A DNA stretch of 35,154 nucleotides, taken from a virus. Taxonomy: Duplodnaviria; Heunggongvirae; Uroviricota; Caudoviricetes. The notes beneath the pieces were generated by a model. The model ran no database searches. It saw only the letters and a list, made by a program, of their open reading frames with translations, and was not told the origin of the DNA. The position numbers were made by a program, and so were the translations under genes. The DNA lies in IMG/VR virus record IMGVR_UViG_2913152634_000005. One strand, 5' to 3'. The stretch's first letter is position 1. Every line of letters begins with the position of its first letter. Of the stretch, positions 10,566-27,536 are shown piece after piece.

Positions 10566-11329
10566 TACCTAATTTTTAACCTCAACTGATTAAATTTCGG
10601 TCAAACATCCGTTAGTGAAATACAAGTTGCTATGTAAATACACACCTGCAACTTGTATTACCAACCAAGTTTAGCTCCCGATATTACTCATTTCCATTAT
10701 TTTTCCTTGGCTAGCGCTTCGTCGAACATTTTTACGTGTTATCTTCAAGGTAGATGCTCGCAGAAATGATAGTACCACCGATTCGGCGTTGACCATAAGC
10801 CAGCAGAACAAGATCCCCTTGGCCGGTTGTATTCGTTACACCACCAAATGCATAGAATGCCTTGTTATCAGTATCTTGCTTACTCGGCTACCCACAAGAT
10901 TGTGGGGATAGCATTTGAGCAACGTAGCCTATCGTCACAGAAGCCCCTACTACAAACATCATATTACTGGACGCTATACGCGCTCCTGACATTCAGATAG
11001 ACACAGCAACGCAAATCATTTGCAGCAGACCAGAGCTTTTACTTTCCACAATAACTGGCACAAATACGAATTTCCCGACCCTCAGTAGAGAGCACAAGCG
11101 CATCTTTTCCAATATTCTGTTTCCTATGAAAAATACAGAATGTCAGCTCGCGAAATTTACTAGTATTCAGATACTTTTCTAATCGAACCTCTCAGTTTAA
11201 TCGTCATCATTACCTTATAGCTCTGCATTTCGAGTTCCTACAGTAGAGTAAGTGTTCAGTAACCCAAGTTCAGGAGAAAGGAAACGATCATGCCATTTTC
11301 AGTCCCAAATAATGCTTTCCATTTCCTTT

Positions 11330-11480
11330 CTTTTCAGGTGGTGTTTTAAATAAAAACATAAAGTTACGGCGAAGAAGAACGGAAACGCCTTAAACCGGAA
11401 AATTTCCATAAATAGAGAAAAACTGCGCGCCTTCCGCCCCGTAACGCTCCGGATCACCGGAAAGGACCCGCTCAAAAAAA
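11330..11480. other. cos-like DNA packaging site of the integrated element (cosB/cosQ conserved, cosN divergent)
   Basis: About 150 bp with roughly 85-90% identity to the prophage cos region at 27122-27270; cosN position reads GGGCGGAAGGCG versus GGGCGGCGACCT. Confidence 0.7.
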
Positions 11481-11513
11481 GCGGCCACTGACGTGATTGT
11501 TTATGTTCCATGA

Positions 11514-11545
11514 GCGACAAAACCGCCCGGAGGCGGTTTCACATA
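11514..11545 (-). terminator. rho-independent terminator after the gpI-like gene
   Basis: minus-strand CCGCC-tccg-GGCGG stem followed by TTTTG. Confidence 0.5.
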
Positions 11546-11557
11546 AAACATTCTGCA

Positions 11558-12205
11558 TCAGCGACCAATCACCACGATTTCACCACCATCACCTTCATCA
11601 GCTGTGCTGATCTCCTGAGATACCACACGTGACCCCACGCGCATTTCACCGTACAGAACAGGCAGGACATTGCCCTGGGCAACCATGTTATCCAGTGACG
11701 AGAAATACGTGTTCTGCTTACCGTTATCCGTTGTCTGTGTACGGGGAGTTCTGGCTTTCGGTGCCAGCATCTGAGCCACACCGCCAAGGATCATACTGGC
11801 CCCCGCACTATACATTCCTGTAATTGCTGCCGCTCCTAGCCAACCAGCGGGGTTCCACCACGCCACCGCAATCAGCGCCGCCCCCAGCACGGTCTGAAAC
11901 ACACCGCCACTTTTAGCGCCAGCAAGACGCGGTACGATGTGGATCACAGCACCATTCGCCAGCGGCTCATTAAGACGGGCTGATAATTCATTTTCGCCTG
12001 CATCCCGCCCGGCAATCCGTACCTGATACCAACCGTCGCTCAGTTTCTGACGAAACGACGGTAGCTGTGTGGACAGAGCTCGGATGGCTTCAGCCCCCGT
12101 TTTTACACGAAGGTCGATGCGGCGGCCGAATCGTTGCAAATCCCCGTAAAGGCAGATTCGTGCCATGCCCGATGACGCCAGAGGGAGTGTGTGCGTAGTT
12201 GCCAT
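11558..12205 (-). CDS. I: lambda gpI-like tail assembly protein
   Basis: 215 aa; MATTHTLPLASSGMARICLYGDLQRFGRRIDLRVKTG...NTYFSSLDNMVAQGNVLPVLYGEMRVGSRVVSQEISTADEGDGG closely matches lambda gpI as remembered. Confidence 0.8.
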   Translation of the reverse strand: MATTHTLPLASSGMARICLYGDLQRFGRRIDLRVKTGAEAIRALSTQLPSFRQKLSDGWYQVRIAGRDAGENELSARLNEPLANGAVIHIVPRLAGAKSGGVFQTVLGAALIAVAWWNPAGWLGAAAITGMYSAGASMILGGVAQMLAPKARTPRTQTTDNGKQNTYFSSLDNMVAQGNVLPVLYGEMRVGSRVVSQEISTADEGDGGEIVVIGR

Positions 12206-12245
12206 TTGTCGGTATACCTCTCTCGTTTGCTCTGTTGTTCAGAAA

Positions 12246-12629
12246 TTAGCAGATCAACTTATAGCGTCCCTTCCGAGCATTGCGGCGTACACGTTCAATC
12301 TTGAGGCATAGCGCCGCATCTGGCTTTTTTGGGACTGGTACACGGCAATATTCAGAAGCGCGAGGAATATTATTTATCCAGTCAATCACTTCGCTTAAAT
12401 ACCAGGCCTTACGCCCTTCCGTAACCTGCACACGCTCCGGGAACTCTCCACGGGCCTCAAGGTTTAGCAGTGTACGACGACTCAGGGTTGTAAGTTCCAT
12501 CACCTGATTCATATCAACAAGACGCTCGCTTAAACGCATTTTGTCAGCGATAGCTTTTAATTCCTCTACAGCTGGATTTGGGTACATAATTTCGGCAATT
12601 GGCTTAAGGTCATTGTAATGATTCTGCAT
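12246..12629 (-). CDS. AlpA/MerR-like winged-HTH DNA-binding protein (function uncertain; candidate packaging-specificity factor)
   Basis: 127 aa; HTH segment MELTTLSRRTLLNLEARGEFPERVQVTEGRKAWYLSEVIDWI; strong RBS aaggggga. Confidence 0.55.
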   Translation of the reverse strand: MQNHYNDLKPIAEIMYPNPAVEELKAIADKMRLSERLVDMNQVMELTTLSRRTLLNLEARGEFPERVQVTEGRKAWYLSEVIDWINNIPRASEYCRVPVPKKPDAALCLKIERVRRNARKGRYKLIC

Positions 12630-12640
12630 TGTATCCCCCT

Positions 12641-12982
12641 TTACACACGAGCCAGCGGCTGAACAGAAATACCTGAGCCAACAAACGCTGCAACCTTTAC
12701 TGACAGTTCTTTTACAGACTCAGGCCAGTTCAGAGCATCAACATTTAAGACACCTGTCTTATAGACCTGAGCCTGTGTTTTTTTCGCGGTGTCGATTTGT
12801 ACAGCGGATACATAAACCGCTTTACCTACGCTCGTACCATCCCATACCACCAGTGCACCTGTTGCATCTTCCTGCATCAGTGGCGTAAATGCAGGAATTA
12901 CCCCTTTATTAGCTGAAAATATCCCCAGCGTAGTAACCAGTGCTTCAGTGCCAGCCATGAGTTCAGTGTAATGAGTAGCCAT
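12641..12982 (-). CDS. head decoration protein, distant lambda D homologue
   Basis: 113 aa; TPLM...LVVWDGTS.GKAV...Y.KTG...WPE...AF.GSGIS pattern parallels lambda gpD; translationally coupled to the capsid gene. Confidence 0.6.
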   Translation of the reverse strand: MATHYTELMAGTEALVTTLGIFSANKGVIPAFTPLMQEDATGALVVWDGTSVGKAVYVSAVQIDTAKKTQAQVYKTGVLNVDALNWPESVKELSVKVAAFVGSGISVQPLARV

Positions 12983-12991
12983 TGCTCCCCC

Positions 12992-14038
12992 TTAGCCAAT
13001 GCGAACGGTAACAAAACGATTGATGCGGGCCGGTATTGGCTGTGGTGCTGAATGTGTCTGCACATATTCAATAGCCGGATCACCAGGCACAATATAGTTT
13101 TTCGGTGCAAGTTCGGCTTTAGTCAGCCCCATTCGGATTAGCTCCGGATCCTGAATACCGCCATAGGCGACAATCCCCTGAAGAGCCGTATTGCCAAGCA
13201 CCATCAAATCAGGATCAAGGAAATGTTTTTCAGTTCCGTCCTCGTCGGTATAACGCCCGCTGTAAACAACAATCGCAACATCGCCCATATACCCTTTAAA
13301 ACTCACCGAATCACCAAGGTCTTTAAGGGCCGTTTCCAGTTCGGAATTAGAACCACGACGGGTATCCAGAGCCTCTTTTATCGCTCTGAATGAACGGTAT
13401 TTCTTCCATACATTACCGCCCATAATGATGATATTAGTGACGCCCTCACTAAATTCTGCGTAGTTCTCAATATCATCATTTGGATCAAAAGTTTCTTTAT
13501 CCTTACCTGACCACTCAGCACCGCCAGACTGAGTGATGATATTTTGTGGTTTAATATTCCAGTCCAGCTCATAACGTTCAATACCATCGCCCTCAATGAT
13601 ATTTTTCCCCGTTGTGATTGCCTGAACGGCAAGCCATTCAATACGTGCACGAATAGCTTTAGCTTGATTTACAATCGCCTGTTTAACTTTAATATTACGC
13701 GCCCCAAAAGCATTGTATTGCTCAGGTGATACACCAGCAGGGCGCACAGCTAACTTATTTGGATCAATGCTGCTTTTCGGCTTCATATAGCCTGGACGAA
13801 TTGTTTTTGATTCGTACCCTTCGTCACGTGAAACTTTACTACCCACCATAGGAGAACAAAACGCTGCAATTGGGATATTTGGATCGTCGATTGTATCAAG
13901 AATAATATCGCGCGATTCAAACATTACCGAGCGAGTAAAAAACAAACGGGTAAACAACGCATTTAGTTGTTTTTGTACATCTACAGCATTAACCACCTGT
14001 ACAAGCTGGGTAGGCGAATATAAATCAACCATACGCAT
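12992..14038 (-). CDS. major capsid protein, lambda E-like, encoded by the integrated element
   Basis: Conserved blocks ITQSGGAEWSGKDKETFDPNDDIE, DTRRGSNSELETALKDLG, YMGDVAIVVYSG, LGNT shared with lambda gpE at roughly half identity; start at ATG 14036-38 or 14030-32. Confidence 0.82.
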   Translation of the reverse strand: MRMVDLYSPTQLVQVVNAVDVQKQLNALFTRLFFTRSVMFESRDIILDTIDDPNIPIAAFCSPMVGSKVSRDEGYESKTIRPGYMKPKSSIDPNKLAVRPAGVSPEQYNAFGARNIKVKQAIVNQAKAIRARIEWLAVQAITTGKNIIEGDGIERYELDWNIKPQNIITQSGGAEWSGKDKETFDPNDDIENYAEFSEGVTNIIIMGGNVWKKYRSFRAIKEALDTRRGSNSELETALKDLGDSVSFKGYMGDVAIVVYSGRYTDEDGTEKHFLDPDLMVLGNTALQGIVAYGGIQDPELIRMGLTKAELAPKNYIVPGDPAIEYVQTHSAPQPIPARINRFVTVRIG

Positions 14039-14249
14039 CCTCTTTGCATTCATTAAAAATAATTGTGGATATATGCTATCACCGATATTTGTCATGCGAA
14101 TACATGCAACCGAGTGCAATGTTGTATAAAGTTTTGGGATGACAACTTCAGCGCGGATAATTAGTGTTAATATCTTCACTCCCTTTGGTCGGGATTTATG
14201 TAGCATGCCGGAAAATTTATTTTTTTCCGGCCTTTTTTATTGGCAATAT

Positions 14250-14699
14250 TTAAAACGGAATATCATCTCCCCATTGCTCATTATCTCCCACTGGTGGATG
14301 GCTTCCTTGCTGATCTGCCTGTTGTTTTGCTCTGTTCAGTGCGTCAGTAGCCTGCCCCTGTTGGCCTTTTTTGCCGCCCGGTCGCACCGTTCGCGCACTG
14401 ATTACGCTGTCTGCGATAACCTGCCAGCCCTGCCGCGTTTCACCGTTCTGTCCAGTCCACTGACTCACCTGCATGTTACCCGCCACGCTCAGGAGTTCGC
14501 CTTTGTGATGCTTTGCCAGCGCGTCGGCTTGTCTGCCAAACGCCAGAACAGATAACCACATCGTCGCCTGACCGTCATCCGATTGGCTGCAGGGCAGTGA
14601 TACCGCCATACGCGCCAGCGTCATGGGGGTGCCCTTGCTGGTCTGTTTTGTCTGCGGGGCGTCCACCAGCCGCCCGTAAGCTGCTATTTGCGCCGTCAT
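14250..14699 (-). CDS. ssb: single-stranded DNA-binding protein
   Basis: 149 aa; OB-fold SSB pattern, Gly/Gln-rich linker and C-terminal acidic tail DDIPF. Confidence 0.85.
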   Translation of the reverse strand: MTAQIAAYGRLVDAPQTKQTSKGTPMTLARMAVSLPCSQSDDGQATMWLSVLAFGRQADALAKHHKGELLSVAGNMQVSQWTGQNGETRQGWQVIADSVISARTVRPGGKKGQQGQATDALNRAKQQADQQGSHPPVGDNEQWGDDIPF

Positions 14700-14953
14700 G
14701 CTGCCTGCTCTCCGGACTTAATATTGATGGTTGTCACTTCCTCCGCTTCGGCAATCTCCCGTTCGGTCAGCGTGGCAAAGTTTGCAGCCGCCGTTGTCAT
14801 GAATGCGCTTATCAGTTCGGGATGTGCTTTCGCGTATCCTTCCCCGGCGTTGCGGTCTATTGCCTTAATCGCCACCCTTAGCCAGTGTTCAGCCATATCA
14901 AGGGCGCGGTAATGTGGCTTTATATGTTTGTTCAGTTTTCCTGATGTGTGCAT
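14696..14953 (-). CDS. hypothetical protein, translationally coupled to ssb
   Basis: 85-aa ORF; stop overlaps the ssb start. Confidence 0.4.
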   Translation of the reverse strand: MHTSGKLNKHIKPHYRALDMAEHWLRVAIKAIDRNAGEGYAKAHPELISAFMTTAAANFATLTEREIAEAEEVTTINIKSGEQAA

Positions 14954-14989
14954 TTTTATTTTTACCCCCTCGTTTAAAAAGTTTTTTGT

Positions 14990-15240
14990 GCACCACCACC
15001 TTGTCTACCTTGTCTACCTGATTAGTTATCAGGCCAGTAATGGCGCGGGTTTCAGGGAGGTAGACAGCCCCAAATAGCTGTCTACCTCATCTCTACCCGT
15101 CTCCTTACCTGTCTACAAAAATGGGTAGATAAGGTAGATAACAGGTAGACAGTGAAAAATAGTTATCTACCTGCATTAATACATTGAAATAAAAGTATTT
15201 TCTTTCAGTCAGGTAGACAAGGTAGATAACCATTGCCATT
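14990..15240. repeat. iteron array, putative replication origin of the element
   Basis: At least ten copies of GGTAGACA/GGTAGATA and their complements TGTCTACC in both orientations, directly downstream of the helicase gene. Confidence 0.7.
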
Positions 15241-15242
15241 TT

Positions 15243-16334
15243 TTATAAAAACGCATCGCAATCATCAGTAGTCGTTGCGTTGGTCTGCGTGACTCCCTTA
15301 ACTTTTCGCGTAATATATTCATATCCGTAAACTTTCGCCGCTGACCTCATAGCCTTTCCGAACTCATTCACGCTCAAACATTTCCCCTTTCCTGTGTATG
15401 CCATGAAGGCCATATAGACACGGTAAAGGCTGTTTCTGGTCGTGTACTTCACGGAGTCACCACCACCGCCCATCATTAGCCCACGAGCTTCCTCCAGAAA
15501 CTCAAGCGCCGCGCAAAGCTCAACAACTGGATCCGTTTGCTGCTTTATTGCCAGAGCTTCATCACCGTCACGCTGTTCCAGTAGTAAAGCCCTTGCCTTT
15601 TCAGGGTCAGCAAAGTTAGCCAGCAAGCGGCGGATAATTACGGGGATTTCTGCCGCTATCTTTTCCGGTAATTCCTTGTCTTTTTCGTCCTCCCTTACAA
15701 TGTTGTCGAACCGGAAAATCACCCGACGGCGTGACACACCTCCGGCCCGTTCGGTAAAGATCATCGGGTCGTTATTGGTTGCCAGTACCACCGCCCTTAT
15801 TATCGTCGTGAATCGCTTCTCATATTTCGGATTGATTTCAACGGGATCGCCTCCCGTGATTTTCTTGATGCCCGTGCCTTCCCCCGTATATTTCGGCTGA
15901 TCGGCAAGGACGATAAGACGACTCCCGACAACCTGCGCGCGCCCTCCTGCATCATCGAGTGATGTCATCTCTGCGCTTACGGTGTTCTGTTTGCCTGCAA
16001 GCAGGGTGGCAATATGGGTAAATGTACTCTTACCGCTTCCCCCGTCTCCGGTGGCCTCAATGAACATCTGCCAGTCGTAGCGGTTCGCCATAATCATGTA
16101 TAACGCGGCACATATACGCATCATCTTGCGCGGGTCTTTTCCTGCAGCATGTTCAAGCCATTTATGGAAATTTGGCGCATTATCGCGGATGTTTTCCCCT
16201 GCTACTGGTGGCGTGTACTCAATACCATTGTGCGTGGTGCTCCAGTGCTCCGGCGAGTGCGGAGAAAATTCCCCCGTTTTCAGATTAAGCACACCATTAG
16301 TGAACGGTAGCAAATCACCGGACGGCTCCCCCAT
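15243..16334 (-). CDS. replicative helicase domain protein (P4-alpha/D5-type, SF3)
   Basis: 363 aa; Walker A GDGGSGKST, Walker B LIVLADQP; FTNGVLNLKTGEF motif typical of the D5_N/primase linker. Confidence 0.8.
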   Translation of the reverse strand: MGEPSGDLLPFTNGVLNLKTGEFSPHSPEHWSTTHNGIEYTPPVAGENIRDNAPNFHKWLEHAAGKDPRKMMRICAALYMIMANRYDWQMFIEATGDGGSGKSTFTHIATLLAGKQNTVSAEMTSLDDAGGRAQVVGSRLIVLADQPKYTGEGTGIKKITGGDPVEINPKYEKRFTTIIRAVVLATNNDPMIFTERAGGVSRRRVIFRFDNIVREDEKDKELPEKIAAEIPVIIRRLLANFADPEKARALLLEQRDGDEALAIKQQTDPVVELCAALEFLEEARGLMMGGGGDSVKYTTRNSLYRVYMAFMAYTGKGKCLSVNEFGKAMRSAAKVYGYEYITRKVKGVTQTNATTTDDCDAFL

Positions 16335-16993
16335 GGGGCGGCAATAACTTTTAACGCTTCCACGGCGTTATTGATTACGCGTTTGCTGAACGTGGCCCTG
16401 TGCTCTGAATAGATCGCCACCATTTCGCGGCTCAGCTCCATTGTGCTGACCGGACACCATACCCCGCCGCGCCATACGTGGACGATTTCACTTTCTGCAT
16501 GAACACAAACACCATCAAAGCGATCGGCAAGTAGTTGTGCCCGCTCACTGTCTGCCATCTGTGAAAGTTGCGCCTTTTGCTTCGTCGGAAGATTAAGCAC
16601 CAGGCTTTCCCCACGCTCGCATTCCTCTTTGAGTCGCGGCAACTGGTCGGATAAATCCACAGGGCTGGTGTCAGTAATCCCCGCGTATTCGTGTACGGTC
16701 TTCACTCCAGCCACAGCCAGTAACGTAACAATCTGCGTCATGCTGTGCTCTGTGATATGTCCTGCGCGGTAAACACGCACACACTGACGATCTTCATCAA
16801 TGATCCGGTAATCGGTGATGTTTTTCAGTTGCTCATCAGCCAGCACGACAGGCGGCACATCGTCGGCGGCAATATGTTTACCCGCCCATTCCTGCCACTC
16901 TTTCGCATGGCTCCACGCATCACTACCTGCAAAGATGATTACCTCTGTCAGTCTGTCGCGTGGCTGTTTTTTTAAGTTCGGTGCCAGTTTCAT
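16280..16993 (-). CDS. primase-like replication protein, N-terminal module (overlaps the helicase ORF by 55 nt in another frame)
   Basis: 237-aa ORF upstream of the helicase; the overlap suggests one primase-helicase gene split by a frameshift. Confidence 0.5.
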   Translation of the reverse strand: MKLAPNLKKQPRDRLTEVIIFAGSDAWSHAKEWQEWAGKHIAADDVPPVVLADEQLKNITDYRIIDEDRQCVRVYRAGHITEHSMTQIVTLLAVAGVKTVHEYAGITDTSPVDLSDQLPRLKEECERGESLVLNLPTKQKAQLSQMADSERAQLLADRFDGVCVHAESEIVHVWRGGVWCPVSTMELSREMVAIYSEHRATFSKRVINNAVEALKVIAAPWGSRPVICYRSLMVCLI

Positions 16994-17289
16994 TTTTTGC
17001 CCCTGAATGCGTTAATCATGCTTTTCATTTTCTGGATGTTTCCCCGCGCTTTTTCCCTGCTGGTGGGCTTACTGCGGGGTGCGGCATATACCAGGGAAAA
17101 ATCACGCCGGAACTGATAAACAGGCATCACGCAGTCATAGCTATACCCCTCACGGCGGTAAGTGATGCGCCGTTCTGCCACGCCTTTAATCGTTACCGTG
17201 CCGCCGTATTTATCGCGGTAAATATCGCCGTTCATAAATTCAGGCCGAGCGGGGCCGCTGGCAATAAAGCCAGAATTTTTCATTTCCAT
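16990..17289 (-). CDS. hypothetical protein
   Basis: 99-aa ORF, stop overlaps the primase start (ATGA). Confidence 0.4.
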   Translation of the reverse strand: MEMKNSGFIASGPARPEFMNGDIYRDKYGGTVTIKGVAERRITYRREGYSYDCVMPVYQFRRDFSLVYAAPRSKPTSREKARGNIQKMKSMINAFRGKK

Positions 17290-17306
17290 ATTATTTATTC
17301 TTCGAC

Positions 17307-17528
17307 TTAACTCGACTTATTTGATAGCAGGGCACTATTTATTGCGTCATTGAGTTTTTCTGCTGCTTCATCAATAAGTGACAACAGGCCATAAGCAATA
17401 TTTGCATCTTCATTGTCATTTATGCAATCAAGCCACATATTTAATATTGCTTTTGCTGAATTATTTAAAGTTAATGAACTCTCTGCACATGCTAACAATT
17501 TAAAAAAGACTTCTCGTTCTGTATTCAT
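17307..17528 (-). CDS. hypothetical protein
   Basis: 73-aa ORF in a tightly packed leftward operon. Confidence 0.35.
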   Translation of the reverse strand: MNTEREVFFKLLACAESSLTLNNSAKAILNMWLDCINDNEDANIAYGLLSLIDEAAEKLNDAINSALLSNKSS

Positions 17529-17720
17529 TTAATCCCCCACCAGCTTACTTTCTTCCTCAATCAGGAAACTAGCGACACTTCCCGAAAGGCGCGCCAGTAG
17601 GCTCGCCAGCGCGGATATATCAGCATCTGTAATTTTGTTCGGGTATACCTCAAGAAGGCGGCAAATAATCTCTGTTTGGTGCGCACGTTCAGCGGCTTCG
17701 TGTAATGTGATTTCCTGCAT
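17529..17720 (-). CDS. hypothetical protein
   Basis: 63-aa ORF abutting its neighbours. Confidence 0.35.
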   Translation of the reverse strand: MQEITLHEAAERAHQTEIICRLLEVYPNKITDADISALASLLARLSGSVASFLIEEESKLVGD

Positions 17721-17905
17721 TAATGCACCTCTTTTAATTCATACACTGCTGAAATAATGACTTGTGATAAGCCATATTCTGATGATTCGCTTCTCACCGC
17801 AGCAATAGCCGTCTGAACATTAACAGCCTTCACGTTCTGAGCGATACCAATTGTGTGGCCTCGTGGGTTAACAGCTCGGGCAAATACACGGAAGGTTTTA
17901 AGCAC
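17720..17905 (-). CDS. hypothetical protein
   Basis: 61-aa ORF abutting its neighbours. Confidence 0.35.
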   Translation of the reverse strand: MLKTFRVFARAVNPRGHTIGIAQNVKAVNVQTAIAAVRSESSEYGLSQVIISAVYELKEVH

Positions 17906-18161
17906 GGCGCACCTCCTGACGAATACGGGCAGCGAATACCATCACGCAGCCAGTTGGGGATTGCTGGCGGGCTTCCTGTTCGCTGATGGCCTCGATGGTA
18001 ATCACGCGCGGTTGTGCCGTACTCAAGGCGATAAAACGCCAGATGTATTTATTCAGGTTGTGCGAGTTCCGCCCTTGCGGGTGTGTGGTATGATTTCTCA
18101 TAGCTACCTCGATACTGTTGCTATCGTTGGTGGTTAAACGCCCTGTATGTGTTGCGAGCAC
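17898..18161 (-). CDS. hypothetical protein, first gene of the leftward operon
   Basis: 87-aa ORF starting next to the divergent promoter region. Confidence 0.35.
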   Translation of the reverse strand: MLATHTGRLTTNDSNSIEVAMRNHTTHPQGRNSHNLNKYIWRFIALSTAQPRVITIEAISEQEARQQSPTGCVMVFAARIRQEVRRA

Positions 18162-18196
18162 TGCAGGGCGTTGTTCCAGAGCAATAAAACATGATA

Positions 18197-18240
18197 AGGT
18201 GTGTACCTATCAAGAAGCATACTAAGCAATAGGTACATAC
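18197..18240. promoter_or_regulatory. inverted-repeat operator in a divergent promoter region
   Basis: TGTACCTAT (18202-18210) and ATAGGTACA (18229-18237) form a 9-bp inverted repeat immediately upstream of the RHH gene. Confidence 0.45.
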
Positions 18241-18435
18241 ATGTCAACTATCATTCAGCGCGATAAACAGCCGAAAGGTGCTGGTAAGGCACCGGCATTT
18301 CAGATCCGTATCAACCCGGAACTAAAAGAACAAATGGTTAGTGCGGCTGCAAAAGAAGGAATGAGTTTGGCTAATTGGCTTAAAGAACTAGCAAGAGCAG
18401 AACTACGCAAACAAGGTATTGAACCTAGAGGTTAA
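18241..18435 (+). CDS. ribbon-helix-helix DNA-binding protein (repressor or antitoxin-like)
   Basis: 64 aa; beta-strand FQIRINPEL followed by two helices (KEQMVSAAAKEG / MSLANWLKELARAEL), typical of CopG/Arc RHH proteins. Confidence 0.55.
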   Translation: MSTIIQRDKQPKGAGKAPAFQIRINPELKEQMVSAAAKEGMSLANWLKELARAELRKQGIEPRG

Positions 18436-18459
18436 GACTTTTAAAAGGATCTGTGAGAG

Positions 18460-19185
18460 ATGCAAAATCTAAAACGAATAAGTGAATATAATTTAACAGA
18501 CAATCCTATCCCACATTATTTCCCTCATGATAGTAGATTCCTGTCTCTACTTGGGAAATTTTCGTTCCGACTTGAAGATCTAATAGTATTTCACTCATTT
18601 GTTTATCATACATATAACATAAATCTTAAGGAGATACAAAAAATTGCAGATAACACTCCCCAATATAATCCAGACTTATTAGACGATGAAGAGCATGAAA
18701 TGGCCTTGATTTCTCAAGCCAGACATAGAGAGAGGGTTGGTTATTATGATGATCTTAATAGAAAAGCCTCATTTTTTGCCAATGACAGTGTCGTAATTAA
18801 TCTTTGGGCTATTATTGAACAGTTTAGTACCATGGCATACTCTTTGCTAGAAGCAATTATTAAAGAAATACCTGAAAATCAAGTTAAAGTTCCATATACA
18901 TGGGATAAATTAAAAAAGAAATACTTAAGTTATGGTATTGACCTCTCCCAACTTGATTCTTACGATGTCATTAACGAAACTAGGGTTTTAAACAACAAAA
19001 TCAAACACCTTTATATTGTCGATGAAAACCTTGCCTCTTTTCCTTTTTTCAAGGACAAAGAGAACAAGTCATTATTAGGAATGGAATATAGGCTTCAAGA
19101 TTATGTTATTGGAACTCATAAGTTCATCGGGCATCTTTTAGAGGATTGCTCCATAAAATTAGGAAATAAGGCAAACATGATTTAA
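18460..19185 (+). CDS. hypothetical protein, AT-rich cargo gene (candidate toxin or defence effector)
   Basis: 241-aa ORF 24 nt after the RHH gene; no family recognised; visibly AT-rich. Confidence 0.5.
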   Translation: MQNLKRISEYNLTDNPIPHYFPHDSRFLSLLGKFSFRLEDLIVFHSFVYHTYNINLKEIQKIADNTPQYNPDLLDDEEHEMALISQARHRERVGYYDDLNRKASFFANDSVVINLWAIIEQFSTMAYSLLEAIIKEIPENQVKVPYTWDKLKKKYLSYGIDLSQLDSYDVINETRVLNNKIKHLYIVDENLASFPFFKDKENKSLLGMEYRLQDYVIGTHKFIGHLLEDCSIKLGNKANMI

Positions 19186-19189
19186 ATTA

Positions 19190-19222
19190 ATTAGGTAGGT
19201 AATAAACCTACCTAATTGAAAT
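19190..19222. terminator. bidirectional terminator hairpin between convergent genes
   Basis: Perfect palindrome TTAGGTAGGT-aataaa-CCTACCTAA. Confidence 0.55.
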
Positions 19223-19225
19223 GAT

Positions 19226-19459
19226 TTACTTATTTAAGTACCATTCCCCACGAATCCACGCCTGCACCTCCGAAAGGCGATATGCTACGGCAGTGGCACC
19301 TATTTTAATTCGCTTTGGAAACTTTCCTTCTTTCTCTAACTTCCATCGAGTGCTATTAGCAAGAGTAGTTAACTCACGGCATTCTTTCTCACGGATCATT
19401 CGGTCAATGTTAGGAATGTATTCCAGACCCTTTTTATCAACAATTGCCATTTTTTTCAT
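19226..19459 (-). CDS. alpA: AlpA-family excisionase/transcriptional regulator
   Basis: 77 aa; HTH CRELTTLANSTRWKLEKEGKFPKRIKIG; immediately downstream of int. Confidence 0.7.
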   Translation of the reverse strand: MKKMAIVDKKGLEYIPNIDRMIREKECRELTTLANSTRWKLEKEGKFPKRIKIGATAVAYRLSEVQAWIRGEWYLNK

Positions 19460-19460
19460 G

Positions 19461-20573
19461 TTAACCAGCCTTTTGTTTGAGGATTGTCACTTTTGAATCA
19501 GCAGCTGCGATGCTATTGAGATATGTAGTCCAGAGTTCCAGAGCATCCAGTTTTTTAGCCATAAACTTACTCCGGTTGTAAACACCTGCCACGCCAGGTA
19601 GCGCATGGCCTAACAGTTGTTCTACTACATAAAATTCAACACCGAGATCACTTAGATGAGTAGATAGCGTTCTTCTAAGGTCGTGTAGTGACCATTGTTT
19701 TTCATGGCCCAAACGTTTACCGATTTTCCCCCCAATCTTGCTTACGCTTTCTCTAATTCGCAGACTTCCCAGCACATAACCAGTATGTTTTGTCTCTTCG
19801 TGAACATCCGTTACCCACTGTCGTAGAATTTCAGGTACTGGTCTGACGATTTCAACACCAGTTTTTGAGTGATCTTTTGGTACAGTCCAAACCCAACTTT
19901 CGAGATCCCATTCGCTCCATTCTGATAATCGGGCTTCACTCATTCGACATCCAAATACTGTACAAAGCACAAACATTTTTCGCGTGTATTCAGACATTAG
20001 TTTTAAATCAGGCTCGACAAAAATTGCCTTCCAGAGCTGGCCGAGTTCGGCTTCATCCAGAACCCGATCCCGCTTACCTGCAATCTGCCCCACATCACTC
20101 ATGCGCAAATCCTTTAAAGCATCACACGTCGCGTACTGGCGTACCCGACAAAAACGAAGAGCTAATTTAGTGTCAGAAAAAACATACGCCGCCATAACTG
20201 GTGCATTACTTTTAATTCGGTCAAAACAGTCCAGCCATTCATATAGGTGAGTGTCATTTACGGGCAAATGACCGATATAGGGAAAGATATGCTTTCGAAA
20301 TCTGCCAAGCGTTACAGCATGAGTTTTACGACGCACCTTACAGTAATTTTCATACCAGTAATTTAGTGCATCCTCCACTGTGACCGGCTTTAAGCGTTCT
20401 TCAGCCTGAATCTTAATCTGGATACGCGGATCACGTTTGTCAGCCAACCAAGCACGGCACTCGTCGCGCTTTTCCCTTGCCTGTTTGAGTGACATATCAG
20501 GATATTTACCCAACGTTAGCCAGACCGGAGCAGCCCGGCCACCTGCTAACCTGTAGAAGAAAACAAAGCTCAC
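19461..20573 (-). CDS. int: tyrosine integrase (P4-type), catalytic portion; N-terminal arm-binding segment lies in another frame at 20573-20695
   Basis: 370 aa with R...HDLRRT...LLGH...Y tyrosine-recombinase motifs; ORF 20570-20827 encodes the expected N-terminus MAGENKLSDKALKGYLGKPREKQITIADGKGLSIRVSTKGL and stops 1 nt out of frame. Confidence 0.8.
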   Translation of the reverse strand: MSFVFFYRLAGGRAAPVWLTLGKYPDMSLKQAREKRDECRAWLADKRDPRIQIKIQAEERLKPVTVEDALNYWYENYCKVRRKTHAVTLGRFRKHIFPYIGHLPVNDTHLYEWLDCFDRIKSNAPVMAAYVFSDTKLALRFCRVRQYATCDALKDLRMSDVGQIAGKRDRVLDEAELGQLWKAIFVEPDLKLMSEYTRKMFVLCTVFGCRMSEARLSEWSEWDLESWVWTVPKDHSKTGVEIVRPVPEILRQWVTDVHEETKHTGYVLGSLRIRESVSKIGGKIGKRLGHEKQWSLHDLRRTLSTHLSDLGVEFYVVEQLLGHALPGVAGVYNRSKFMAKKLDALELWTTYLNSIAAADSKVTILKQKAG

Positions 20574-20827
20574 AGCCCCTTGGTACTCACACGAATAGAA
20601 AGCCCCTTTCCATCAGCAATGGTGATCTGCTTTTCTCTGGGTTTCCCCAGATATCCTTTAAGTGCTTTGTCGCTCAGTTTGTTCTCGCCAGCCATTTTTA
20701 GCCCCAAAAAGCAATACAAGCTGCAATACAGAGATGATTGCAACACACAGATAACGAGGAAAATCCAGTGAAAGCGCCAGATAAACTTATTCTTTATTAT
20801 CAAAAGATTAAGTGTAAAAACCAGCAA

Positions 20828-21103
20828 CTACACGAAAGCCTCAGAAAGCCATGCTAAGTGCTTCGGCTTGACATATCCCGGCGTAAATTCAGAGGTGGAG
20901 CCGCCACGGGAGCGGATAACCTCACCGGAAACAATCGGCGAAACGTACAGCGCCATGTTTACCAGCCCCGGAATTTGTGAGAGATAGACTTTCTCCGTGG
21001 TGAAGGGATAGCTCTCACGGAAAAAGAGACGCAGAAACAGCGGATCAAACTTAAATTTCTGCTCATTTGCCGCCAGCAGCTGGGCGGTTGTGTACATCGA
21101 CAT
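20828..21103 (-). pseudogene. E: major capsid protein E, 5' fragment (codons 1-84 plus 9 element-derived codons)
   Basis: MSMYTTAQLLAANEQKFKFDPLFLRLFFRESYPFTTEKVYLSQIPGLVNMALYVSPIVSGEVIRSRGGSTSEFTPGYVKPKH matches lambda gpE 1-84, then LAWLSEAFV-stop. Confidence 0.88.
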
Positions 21104-22820: not shown

Positions 22821-26501
<3,681 letters not shown>

Positions 26502-26527
<26 letters not shown>

Positions 26528-27047
26528 TCAGCAACCCCGGTATCAGTTCATCCAGCGCGGCTGCTTTGTTCATGGCTTTGATGATATCCCGTTTCAGGAA
26601 ATCAACATGTCGGTTTTCCAGTTCCGGAAAACGCCGCTGCACCGACAGTGGGATCCCGTCGAGAATACTGGCAATTTCACCTGCGATCCGCGACAGCACG
26701 AAAGTACAGAATGCGGTTTCCACCACTTCAGCGGAGTCTCTGGCATTTTTCAGCTCCTGTGCGTCGGCCTGCGCACGCGTAAGTCGATGGCGTTCGTACT
26801 CAATAGTCCCTGGCTGGAGATCTGTCTCGCTGGCCTGCCGCAGTTCTTCAACCTCCCGGCGCAGCTTTTCGTTCTCAATTTCAGCATCCCTTTCGGCATA
26901 CCATTTTATGACGGCGGCAGAGTCATAAAGCACCTCATTACCCTTGCCACCGCCTCGCAGAACGGGCATTCCCTGTTCCTGCCAGTTCTGAATGGTACGG
27001 ATACTCGCACCGAAAATGTCAGCCAGCTGCTTTTTGTTGACTTCCAT
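26502..27047 (-). CDS. nu1: terminase small subunit Nu1
   Basis: 181 aa, MEVNKKQLADIFGASIRTIQNWQEQGMPVL... as in lambda Nu1. Confidence 0.92.
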
Positions 27048-27119
27048 TGTTCATTCCACGGACAAAAACAGAGAAAGGAAACGACAGAGGCCAAAAAGCT
27101 CGCTTTCAGCACCTGTCGT

Positions 27120-27245
27120 TTCCTTTCTTTTCAGGGGGTATTTTAAATAAAAACACTAAGTTACGACGAAGAAGAACGGAAACGCCTTAAACCGGAAAAT
27201 TTTCATAAATAGCGAAAACCCGCGAGGTCGCCGCCCCGTAGCCTG
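27120..27245. other. prophage cos site (cosB, cosN at 27216-27227, cosQ)
   Basis: Minus strand reads ...CAGGCTACG GGGCGGCGACCT CGCGGGTTTTCGCTATTTATGAAAATTTTCCGGTTTAAGGCG..., the lambda cos as remembered. Confidence 0.85.
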
Positions 27246-27536
27246 CCGGATCGCCGGAAAGGACCCGCAAGCGTTCTGGTTTATTCGCAATGAATTCAAT
27301 GTCTGACAGACCAGCGTCGTGCGACCACGGTCGCACGCTCCTGAATACATGCCCTGTTTCTTCCACCCTCGCACAAGACTGGCGAGCATGAGGGACAAAC
27401 CCGCGAATCATTAGCGCGGTAAAAACCCGGTGTGCATCGTTTTGATTATTCCCGCACACTCGCGCAGAAGGAATTCCCCGTCGGGCTACGGTCATGGTTA
27501 ATGCGGGAATACGGCGACGATACAGCGCATAATGTG

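Follow-up and report, generated by a model that had tools for sequence, protein, structure and literature searches.

Apparent capture of a phage tail-tip gene beside the lambda-type cos site of a helper-embedded satellite

The IMG/VR virus record IMGVR_UViG_2913152634_000005 is a stretch of 35,154 nucleotides (hereafter the window, always meaning the whole stretch) which holds a lambdoid prophage and, within gene E of that prophage, an 11.4-kb helper-embedded phage-inducible chromosomal island (PICI) of the 11capE type (9445-20869, minus strand), co-oriented with E. With moderate confidence, this element can be read as (i) a satellite of a known type; (ii) endowed with a full lambda-type cos site; (iii) whose cosN is a natural allele; and (iv) which has captured one single gene, the tail tip assembly gene gpI, with a likely neutral or marginal effect.

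Capture of gpI

The gpI gene of the element (11558..12205, minus strand; the RefSeq start is at 12166) is an intact open reading frame (ORF) of 215 aa, free of stops and frameshifts, whose product matches the Lambda_tail_I family (PF06805; E 1e-23, 84 bits against a cut-off of 23.8), is assigned to phrog_32 and aligns with lambda gpI from end to end (215/223 aa) at 78% identity. It also matches the solved lambda tail tips (PDB 8iyk chain I, E 1.9e-108; 9e7m, residues 129-214) and reaches 91-94% identity with the I proteins of mEp460/cdtI-type phages and of Salmonella phage SPF_0923. The window gpI and lambda gpI have in common a ubiquitin-like N-terminal domain (PF06805), a Gly/Ala-rich hydrophobic middle, a conserved C-terminal part and a downstream hairpin. 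But while lambda gpI belongs to a K-I-J operon, the window gene stands alone beside the satellite cos, with no K, L, M or J. An earlier note on this DNA had claimed that gpI is far closer to lambda gpI than the capsid gene of the element is to lambda gpE, and this is borne out: the E-like capsid gene (12992-14032, minus strand) is 42% identical to gpE and the gene for the gpD-like decoration protein (12641-12982, minus strand) 40% identical to gpD, the two together (12641..14032, minus strand) being the satellite's own diverged capsid genes. PADLOC returned a weak partial match of gpI to LeoBC.

In Escherichia coli VCSW7, the same site of an intact prophage is occupied by a 97-98% identical element that has no gpI. 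According to blastn against this element (locus L097) and to the junctions, gpI lies on a captured segment of 781 bp (11472..12252, minus strand) that replaces 31 bp of the sibling elements. The segment sits between the stop codon of the AlpA-like gene (12246..12629, minus strand), which is the last ancestral gene ahead of cos and whose last codon is changed, and a point 2 bp from cosQ. It contains (i) the last 41 bp of K upstream of I; (ii) the whole of I; and (iii) the I-J intergenic hairpin, and its phage homology stops about 10 bp short of the would-be ATG of J. With 41 bp of K-only sequence upstream and no J, gpI is not part of a K-I-J operon. Judged from this indel, resolved to the base pair, gpI is to all appearances a true secondary capture from a lambdoid phage.

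The insert is absent from 77 of the 80 IMG/VR siblings (carriers, 3/80) and present in three of 5426 complete E. coli genomes; since all three share the same decayed composite at the same locus, a single capture event in a single clone is indicated. Elsewhere in the 5426 genomes no match exceeds 91% at the nucleotide level, and among INPHARED phages none exceeds 94% at the amino acid level. Outside the three carrier genomes, then, nothing matches the insert better than at 91% nt, and the donor is therefore unsampled. From the former suggestion of a recent capture from a lambdoid phage, the acquisition itself stands, as a 781-bp indel, whereas "recent" can be kept only in the sense of lineage-restricted, given that best match of 91% nt. 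No continuity of gpI with tail genes was found in related elements.

The 41-bp K-only 3' remnant (12206..12246, minus strand) holds the ribosome-binding site (RBS) of I; the K pseudogene annotated in RefSeq (12103-12246) overlaps I, and lambda K and I overlap by 103 bp. The hairpin downstream of gpI (11520..11539, minus strand; dG -19.3 kcal/mol, z -2.6) had been taken for a terminator of its own, an interpretation that has to be abandoned: this same hairpin occurs in the I-J interval of lambda and of ordinary prophages and, in consequence, it is the intergenic hairpin of the donor phage and not a terminator of the element. Only 4 U follow the stem, and a terminator scan made no call there. 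From the capsid gene to gpI there is no promoter-like site.

As for the junction, in an IMG/VR alignment lambdoid cos similarity ends exactly at the upstream edge of cosQ (GGGTCC), to the left of which many unrelated sequences are found. As the gpI insert uses that same junction (window 11470-11472), the cosQ edge looks like a general boundary for cargo or mosaic segments. Capture mediated by the integrase was considered and discarded, since inspection by eye found no att-core-like sequence at the insert borders. The candidate role of gpI as a Tai-like tail-assembly inhibitor was also discarded: Tai genes adjoin pri and act on J, and nothing links them to gpI.

A lambda-type packaging site

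Aligned with the prophage cos and with the left end of lambda, and with subsites assigned from the lambda numbering in PMC9026076, the element shows a complete lambda-type cos (11273..11469, minus strand). On that strand, the site consists of (i) cosQ, GGGTCCT (11463-11469); (ii) the cosN 12-mer GGGCGGAAGGCG (11428-11439); (iii) R3 (about 11375-11390), with I1 present between R3 and R2; (iv) R2 (about 11318-11335); and (v) R1 (about 11273-11288). The close match of some 150 bp to the prophage cos region, proposed in the earlier note, was confirmed: 11322-11471 is 87.3% identical to 27119-27268 of the resident prophage over 150 bp (E 3e-51). Due to an extra match of 14/14 to the prophage cos at R1 (11274-11287), the functional cos is placed at about 11273-11469 and hence extends below the start at 11330 given before. 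The spacing between cosQ and cosN equals that in the prophage and in lambda; the left half of cosN and the flanking CG are conserved; and the R3 and I2 region is identical or nearly so to prophage and lambda, with the R3 core at the lambda position. By its subsites (cosQ, cosN and R3-I1-R2-R1), the element cos is apparently a lambda-specificity site.

The resident prophage cos (27071..27268, minus strand), with cosN GGGCGGCGACCT at 27225-27236, is followed by Nu1 (26502-27047, minus strand) and A (24602-26527, minus strand). Past the element cos, the minus strand has neither an ORF reaching 50 aa nor anything resembling Nu1, in agreement with the claimed absence of a small-terminase gene; the element can therefore still be described, as before, as a putative satellite that depends on a helper, has a cos of the lambda type and lacks terS. 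Given this absence, redirection of the Rpp type was considered and rejected: cosB is lambda-type, and cos is followed by a gpI-like pseudogene in place of any intact ORF. The late AlpA-like protein, a winged helix-turn-helix (wHTH) protein of 127 aa (PF05930; PDB 8c3t AlpA, E 1.6e-10; phrog_2790), was rejected as an Rpp as well, because it matches AlpA (8c3t) and has no Rpp match in PDB. This screen, which found no Rpp, covered, among the small ORFs of the element, the 127-aa protein only.

Some siblings with near-identical capsid genes (loci L010/L137, L021, L072, L082 and L128) have non-lambda sequence ("TATGAGCATTTTAAGGGGACTGGTGG...") past cosN, and also a different downstream Abi-like gene. 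In view of the former, cosB specificity may vary within the 11capE family.

A natural cosN allele

The cosN of the element had been described as altered. It is true that the 12-mer GGGCGGAAGGCG differs from the GGGCGGCGACCT of lambda and the prophage at five positions (bp 7, 8, 9, 10 and 12; bp 1-6 and 11 are the same) but there is nothing peculiar in the alteration, which is shared by many lambdoid phages and prophages and by sibling satellites: GGGCGGAAGGCG is a common natural cosN allele circulating in lambdoid phages and satellites. Of the matches to the 17-mer ACGGGGCGGAAGGCGCG in 93 IMG/VR contigs, 83 are cos sites, among them sites with a lambda-type R3 (60), a phage-21-type cosB and terS (18) and a third type of cosB (4). 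A Nu1-type terS comes next in 57 of the 60 sites with a lambda-type R3; of the other three, 2 are truncated and 1 is that of this element. Two GenBank phages, PhiR46_1 (PV340565) and YDC107_1 (CP025712), likewise have a GGGCGGAAGGCG cosN directly ahead of Nu1/A. The cos variant is then one already known in other lambdoid phages (these two, plus the 57 IMG/VR cos sites with a Nu1-type terS), which deprives it of the singularity previously ascribed to it.

The resident gpA is identical to that of PhiR46_1 at 635/641 positions, and the resident Nu1 is 93% identical overall, with an identical DNA-binding domain (residues 1-60). Since PhiR46_1 pairs the allele with near-identical gpA and Nu1, an essentially identical terminase presumably works on GGGCGGAAGGCG in nature. 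No paper on phage PhiR46_1 was found, and its plaque-forming status is taken from the GenBank host field only. The cos of PhiR46_1/YDC107_1-type phages has the same cosQ core, cosN and R3 as that of the element (92% over 150 bp), and their terminase closely resembles the resident one (identity of 99% for gpA and 93% for Nu1). However, Nu1/A follow cos in those phages, while the element has an unrelated R2-R1 spacer and no terS.

Among the 80 IMG/VR siblings (97-100% identical capsid genes), GGGCGTCAGGCG is the majority cosN allele, followed by GGGCGGCGACCT and GGGCGGAAGGCG. The possibility that the AAGGCG allele is a PICI-specific cosN was rejected: the group with non-lambda cosB ("CCGGGGAAAATCATGTCGG") corresponds to phage-21-type cos with a 21-type terS, and not to Rpp-type PICIs. 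Changes at cosN bp 7-12 have a minimal effect and the lambda TerL lacks cosN specificity, while a mismatch of 2 nt in the cohesive ends leads to an approximately fourfold lower viable yield (PMC4669245).

Helper and satellite cosN were also compared within helper/helper-embedded PICI (HE-PICI) composites (loci L183-L247 plus window 11428-11439 versus 27225-27236). They differ in 27 of 33 composites, which are not phylogenetically independent, and match in the other 6 pairs. In the usual mismatch the helper has GGGCGGCGACCT and the satellite mostly GGGCGTCAGGCG or else GGGCGGAAGGCG, with bp 1-5 invariant. Drift in the tolerant right half of cosN suffices for this pattern. Natural cosN variation in lambda-like phages has reportedly been catalogued by Vahanian in 2017, as related in a paper that cites that work.

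Older and solitary I genes in PICIs

Downstream of cos, the window holds a decayed gpI-family pseudogene (10738..11200, minus strand; tblastn E 6e-13 to the captured gpI) with two in-frame stops and a frameshift, which is also found in gpI-less siblings (L097, minus strand, about 11739-12101). It is 55-65% identical to an intact ORF (L098 12062-12661) that encodes a 199-aa orthologue and lies right behind cos in a PICI on the chromosome of Kluyvera georgiana; several IMG/VR relatives have it too. The pseudogene is apparently what remains of an older I gene of the satellite type, of which related PICIs still have intact versions.

A search with the protein of this intact orthologue gave 80 I-family loci (L248-L327), about 40 of which are ordinary phage contexts (K-I-J or I-J). 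Solo I genes were found in three PICI architectures: (i) directly after the TerL of capsid-forming PICI (cf-PICI)-type modules, in 19 of the 80 loci (e.g., L276 6989-7603); (ii) downstream of a ClpP-capsid-fusion gene, in about 16 (e.g., L249 7001-7600), with cos between the fusion gene and I in 10 and no recognised cos in 6; and (iii) after E-like/D-like/AlpA/cos modules, in 4. All these solo copies are intact, with medians of 0.05-0.10 for the pairwise ratio of nonsynonymous to synonymous substitution rates (dN/dS), compared with 0.107 for phage K-I-J copies, and in the three architectures they appear to be under purifying selection.

Both the solo Lambda_tail_I genes of PICIs and the window gpI lack K and J and lie at the distal end of a packaging module, by cos or TerL. 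Nevertheless, the solo lineage is diverged (about 31-35% identical to the captured gpI) and consists of apparent long-term residents downstream of cos or TerL, whereas the window gpI is a phage-like arrival upstream of cos. Solo I genes in PICIs are not discussed in the searchable literature, and the cf-PICI and SatelliteFinder papers make no mention of them. Only a supplementary gene list (PMC10111431) uses the label "Lambda_tail_I", for Kpn6334.16 and Kpn6433.16, two HE-PICIs of Klebsiella.

Proposed mechanism and alternative explanations

Packaging of the satellite would depend on a lambda-type Nu1/gpA terminase provided in trans: Nu1 would bind R3, R2 and R1, cosN would be nicked, and satellite concatemers would be packaged from cos to cos. 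Because the cos has the makeup of a full lambda-specificity site, such a terminase could both start and finish packaging without an Rpp-like protein. Four units of 11.4 kb would amount to 45.6 kb, that is, a lambda-sized chromosome; the related PICI EcCICFT073 has been reported to be packaged as ~45-kb concatemers. Normal cutting of the variant cosN would be expected, since its departures from the lambda allele all fall in the right half (bp 7-12), which tolerates changes.

Regarding gpI, illegitimate recombination would have placed the gene of an mEp460/cdtI-type phage between the last late gene and cosQ, together with its own RBS (in the 3' end of K) and the I-J hairpin of the donor. It would most likely be co-transcribed with the capsid, decoration and AlpA-like late genes, which is the simplest reading in the absence of a promoter-like site between the capsid gene and gpI, and its product, if expressed, would be a normal tail-tip protein I. 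The capture was most likely neutral or of marginal benefit, because nearly all siblings lack gpI and the helper of the sole carrier clone cannot make tails.

Several points weigh against this reading. The insert is tidily bordered, beginning right past a stop codon and ending 2 bp from cosQ, and brings its own RBS, all of which is in keeping with selection for expression of the gene; so is the fact that PICIs more widely keep solo I genes, and "neutral" may thus be too dismissive. In the cos, R2 and R1 are each 2 bp off the prophage copies and the R2-R1 spacer is unrelated. Besides, the satellite/helper system is probably inert in this genome, because the integrase and primase genes are frameshifted and the helper lacks the region from V' to J. 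Finally, a published attempt to obtain 11capE particles failed, excision having been shown in NRG857c (PMC10111431).

It is possible, if doubtful, that the captured gpI is adaptive: the ancestral I would have decayed and the sublineage re-acquired its function, so that the satellite gpI would enter the helper tail tips and there secure or modify assembly or DNA delivery. In favour of this, both the window and gpI-less siblings do have a decayed I-family pseudogene downstream of cos, and related PICIs keep intact orthologues at that position; solo I genes occur in three PICI architectures (19, about 16 and 4 loci), as intact copies whose dN/dS medians (0.05-0.10) resemble the phage value (0.107); and the insert is a tidy single-gene cassette with an RBS that encodes a structural tail-tip component, of which the solved lambda tails have three copies per tip. 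Nevertheless, 77 of 80 close siblings have no intact copy, old or new, despite the family being common in E. coli (the 11capE type is found in about 5% of the genomes; PMC10111431). Moreover, the capture occurred in one clone only, with a helper unable to make tails, and no phenotype is tied to a PICI-encoded I in the searchable literature. The new copy, in addition, is not at the old position and, hence, is not a homologous replacement. A broader version of this idea, to be taken just as tentatively, is that enterobacterial PICIs gain from having their own protein I in the stolen tail tip, the window being then an instance of turnover in which the old I decayed and a phage I was captured.

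The gpI segment might instead be a non-functional scar, either all that survives of a more extensive capture of helper tail genes or debris of the rearrangements in which the resident prophage lost G to J. Tommasini et al. propose large captures of late genes followed by loss, in cycles (PMC10111431); the insert does contain a K remnant; the resident prophage lost exactly the region that would hold K-I; and the composite is decaying (IS3 insertions; frameshifted int and primase in the window copy). A scar of either kind seems unlikely, however, as the ORF is complete, without stops or frameshifts, and its protein is 91-94% identical to the I of working phages; the K-only remainder is just 41 bp long and precisely the part with the RBS of I; and no other tail-gene fragments flank the insert. 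Resident origin, in particular, is not supported, because the insert and K-I of the VCSW7 prophage agree at just 90-93%, leaving a central stretch unaligned, while the rest of the two prophages, outside the element, agrees at 95.5-97.6%. A functional divergence of cosN is more improbable still. According to such a proposal, either non-annealing ends would insulate the satellite from helper DNA (a chromosome bounded by a helper cos at one end and a satellite cos at the other, for instance, would be unable to cyclise) or the allele would need a matching terminase variant. The mismatch in 27 of 33 composites and the fourfold drop in viable yield caused by a 2-nt end mismatch (PMC4669245) can be adduced for it. 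But the composites are mostly near-identical E. coli elements, phylogenetically non-independent, and 6 helper/satellite pairs match; ordinary phages with near-identical terminases carry the same alleles; the lambda-type TerL lacks cosN specificity (PMC4669245); and neutral drift in the tolerant right half, together with recombination, accounts for the pattern. A single-gene capture of little or no consequence by a satellite with a natural cosN allele is the reading retained here.

Relation to known elements and significance

The founding 11capE element lies at codon 80 of the Phage_cap_E profile in a lambdoid prophage and has its own diverged capsid gene and no terS; Tommasini, Mageeney and Williams (2023) described for such elements a dynamic "Late zone" that captures helper late genes (PMC10111431). 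The window element has the same integration site, att core and orientation in gene E as Eco567.11capE of strain NRG857c (E:Phage_cap_E:80 group), and the same order (int/AlpA, variable zone, primase/SSB, E-like capsid) without terS, a likeness drawn from the published description of 11capE. The 11capE cos-like region is about 90% identical to the helper cos, and the window element is similar in this respect. The window sublineage departs from the 11capE group in its K'-I insertion of 781 bp, placed after the late AlpA-like gene and ahead of cosQ, and in its cosN, which is GGGCGGAAGGCG and not, as in most siblings, GGGCGTCAGGCG or GGGCGGCGACCT. The 11capE paper deals with late-gene capture in general, in clusters of 5 to 17 genes (PMC10111431), and does not describe the present single-gene case.

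PICIs of the EcCICFT073 type (Fillol-Salom, 2019; Murialdo and Feiss, 2022, PMC9026076) resemble the window element in that they depend on lambdoid helpers, are packaged by cos and have neither terS nor terL; in both, cosQ and cosN hardly differ from the phage sequences. But while EcCICFT073-type PICIs have no lambda R sites and use an rpp gene just downstream of cos to retarget TerS (PMC9026076), the window element has a lambda-type cosB (R3, I1, R2 and R1) and no rpp-like ORF after cos.

In general terms, the type of element, a helper-like cos, natural cosN polymorphism and late-gene capture were all known, and the present capture is a new example. Its value lies in being a clean, datable capture of a single gene with base-pair-resolved borders, which marks the cosQ-proximal junction as a slot for cargo in satellites, as in lambdoid phages. 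Three observations are possibly new: (i) the decayed older gpI-like gene; (ii) the solo I genes in three PICI architectures; and (iii) the cosN mismatch between satellite and helper. Should they be confirmed, PICIs said to "only steal tails", or heads, may themselves supply the tail tip with one component, protein I, and embedded satellites would usually carry cohesive ends unlike those of their helper. Were the benefit of an own protein I true, it would represent a previously unrecognised satellite function acting on the helper tail tip (e.g., in tip assembly or DNA delivery).

The element, its host prophage and accessory genes

The limits and type of the element (9445..20869, minus strand) are given by the E fragments on either side, the att cores and the int, AlpA, primase, single-stranded DNA-binding protein (SSB) and capsid domains. 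The attR core AACCCAAGCA (9445-9454) and the attL core AAGCCGAAGCA (20859-20869) match the E_Phage_cap_E_80 identity block, which for the E:Phage_cap_E:80 site group is aacccaagca (PMC10111431, supplement). The gene order is int, a helix-turn-helix (HTH) gene, variable genes, DUF4222, D5/DUF5906 primase, SSB, E-like, D-like, AlpA-like, (I), cos and AbiJ-like; the zones thus follow the order of PICIs (integration, variable, replication, late), and there are no tail or lysis modules. The integrase points inward, is of the tyrosine type (Phage_integrase and Arm-DNA-bind domains) and is adjoined by the HTH gene (19226-19459). The family integrase, a putative member of the 11capE clade, is 99-100% identical in more than 40 IMG/VR siblings.

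The window is chromosomal DNA of E. coli: a 1.7-kb query (window 11000-12700) is 100% identical to E. coli strains RM14723 and 2015C-4136CT1. The integrase (19461-20693) and primase (15243-16993) genes are frameshifted in the window copy and are RefSeq pseudogenes in RM14723; both are intact in the copy of strain Z1323HEC0355, which is otherwise 99.9% identical. The frameshifts represent either recent decay or homopolymer sequencing errors.

The late region of the resident prophage, on the minus strand, runs through Nu1, A, W, B, C, D and the first ~80 codons of E up to the element, past which come the remainder of E, FI, FII, Z, U, a V cut by IS3, lom and tail fibre genes. The prophage has therefore lost G to J, as the earlier note had stated: IS3 interrupts V and stands in the place of G to J, and lom is next.

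Between cos and attR, on the opposite strand, an accessory region contains a small ORF (9574-9759, plus strand) and an AbiJ-like abortive-infection gene (9804-10565, plus strand; Abi_C domain; PADLOC AbiJ, E 2e-22), in place of which some siblings have a 56%-identical variant. The variable zone by int/AlpA also differs between siblings (window 18241-19185, plus strand, versus L097 18415-20019): that of the window encodes a HicB-like antitoxin and a 241-aa protein with no family match, and that of VCSW7 encodes SWIM zinc-finger and DUF2971 proteins. Lastly, window positions 1-7000 hold decayed prophage cargo, namely lom, tail-fibre genes and the T3SS (type III secretion system) effector genes nleB2 and nleC; nleD lies just outside the low-coordinate end of the window in RM14723, and a cargo of nleB2/nleC/nleD is typical of the exchangeable effector loci of enteropathogenic and Shiga toxin-producing E. 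coli (EPEC/STEC).

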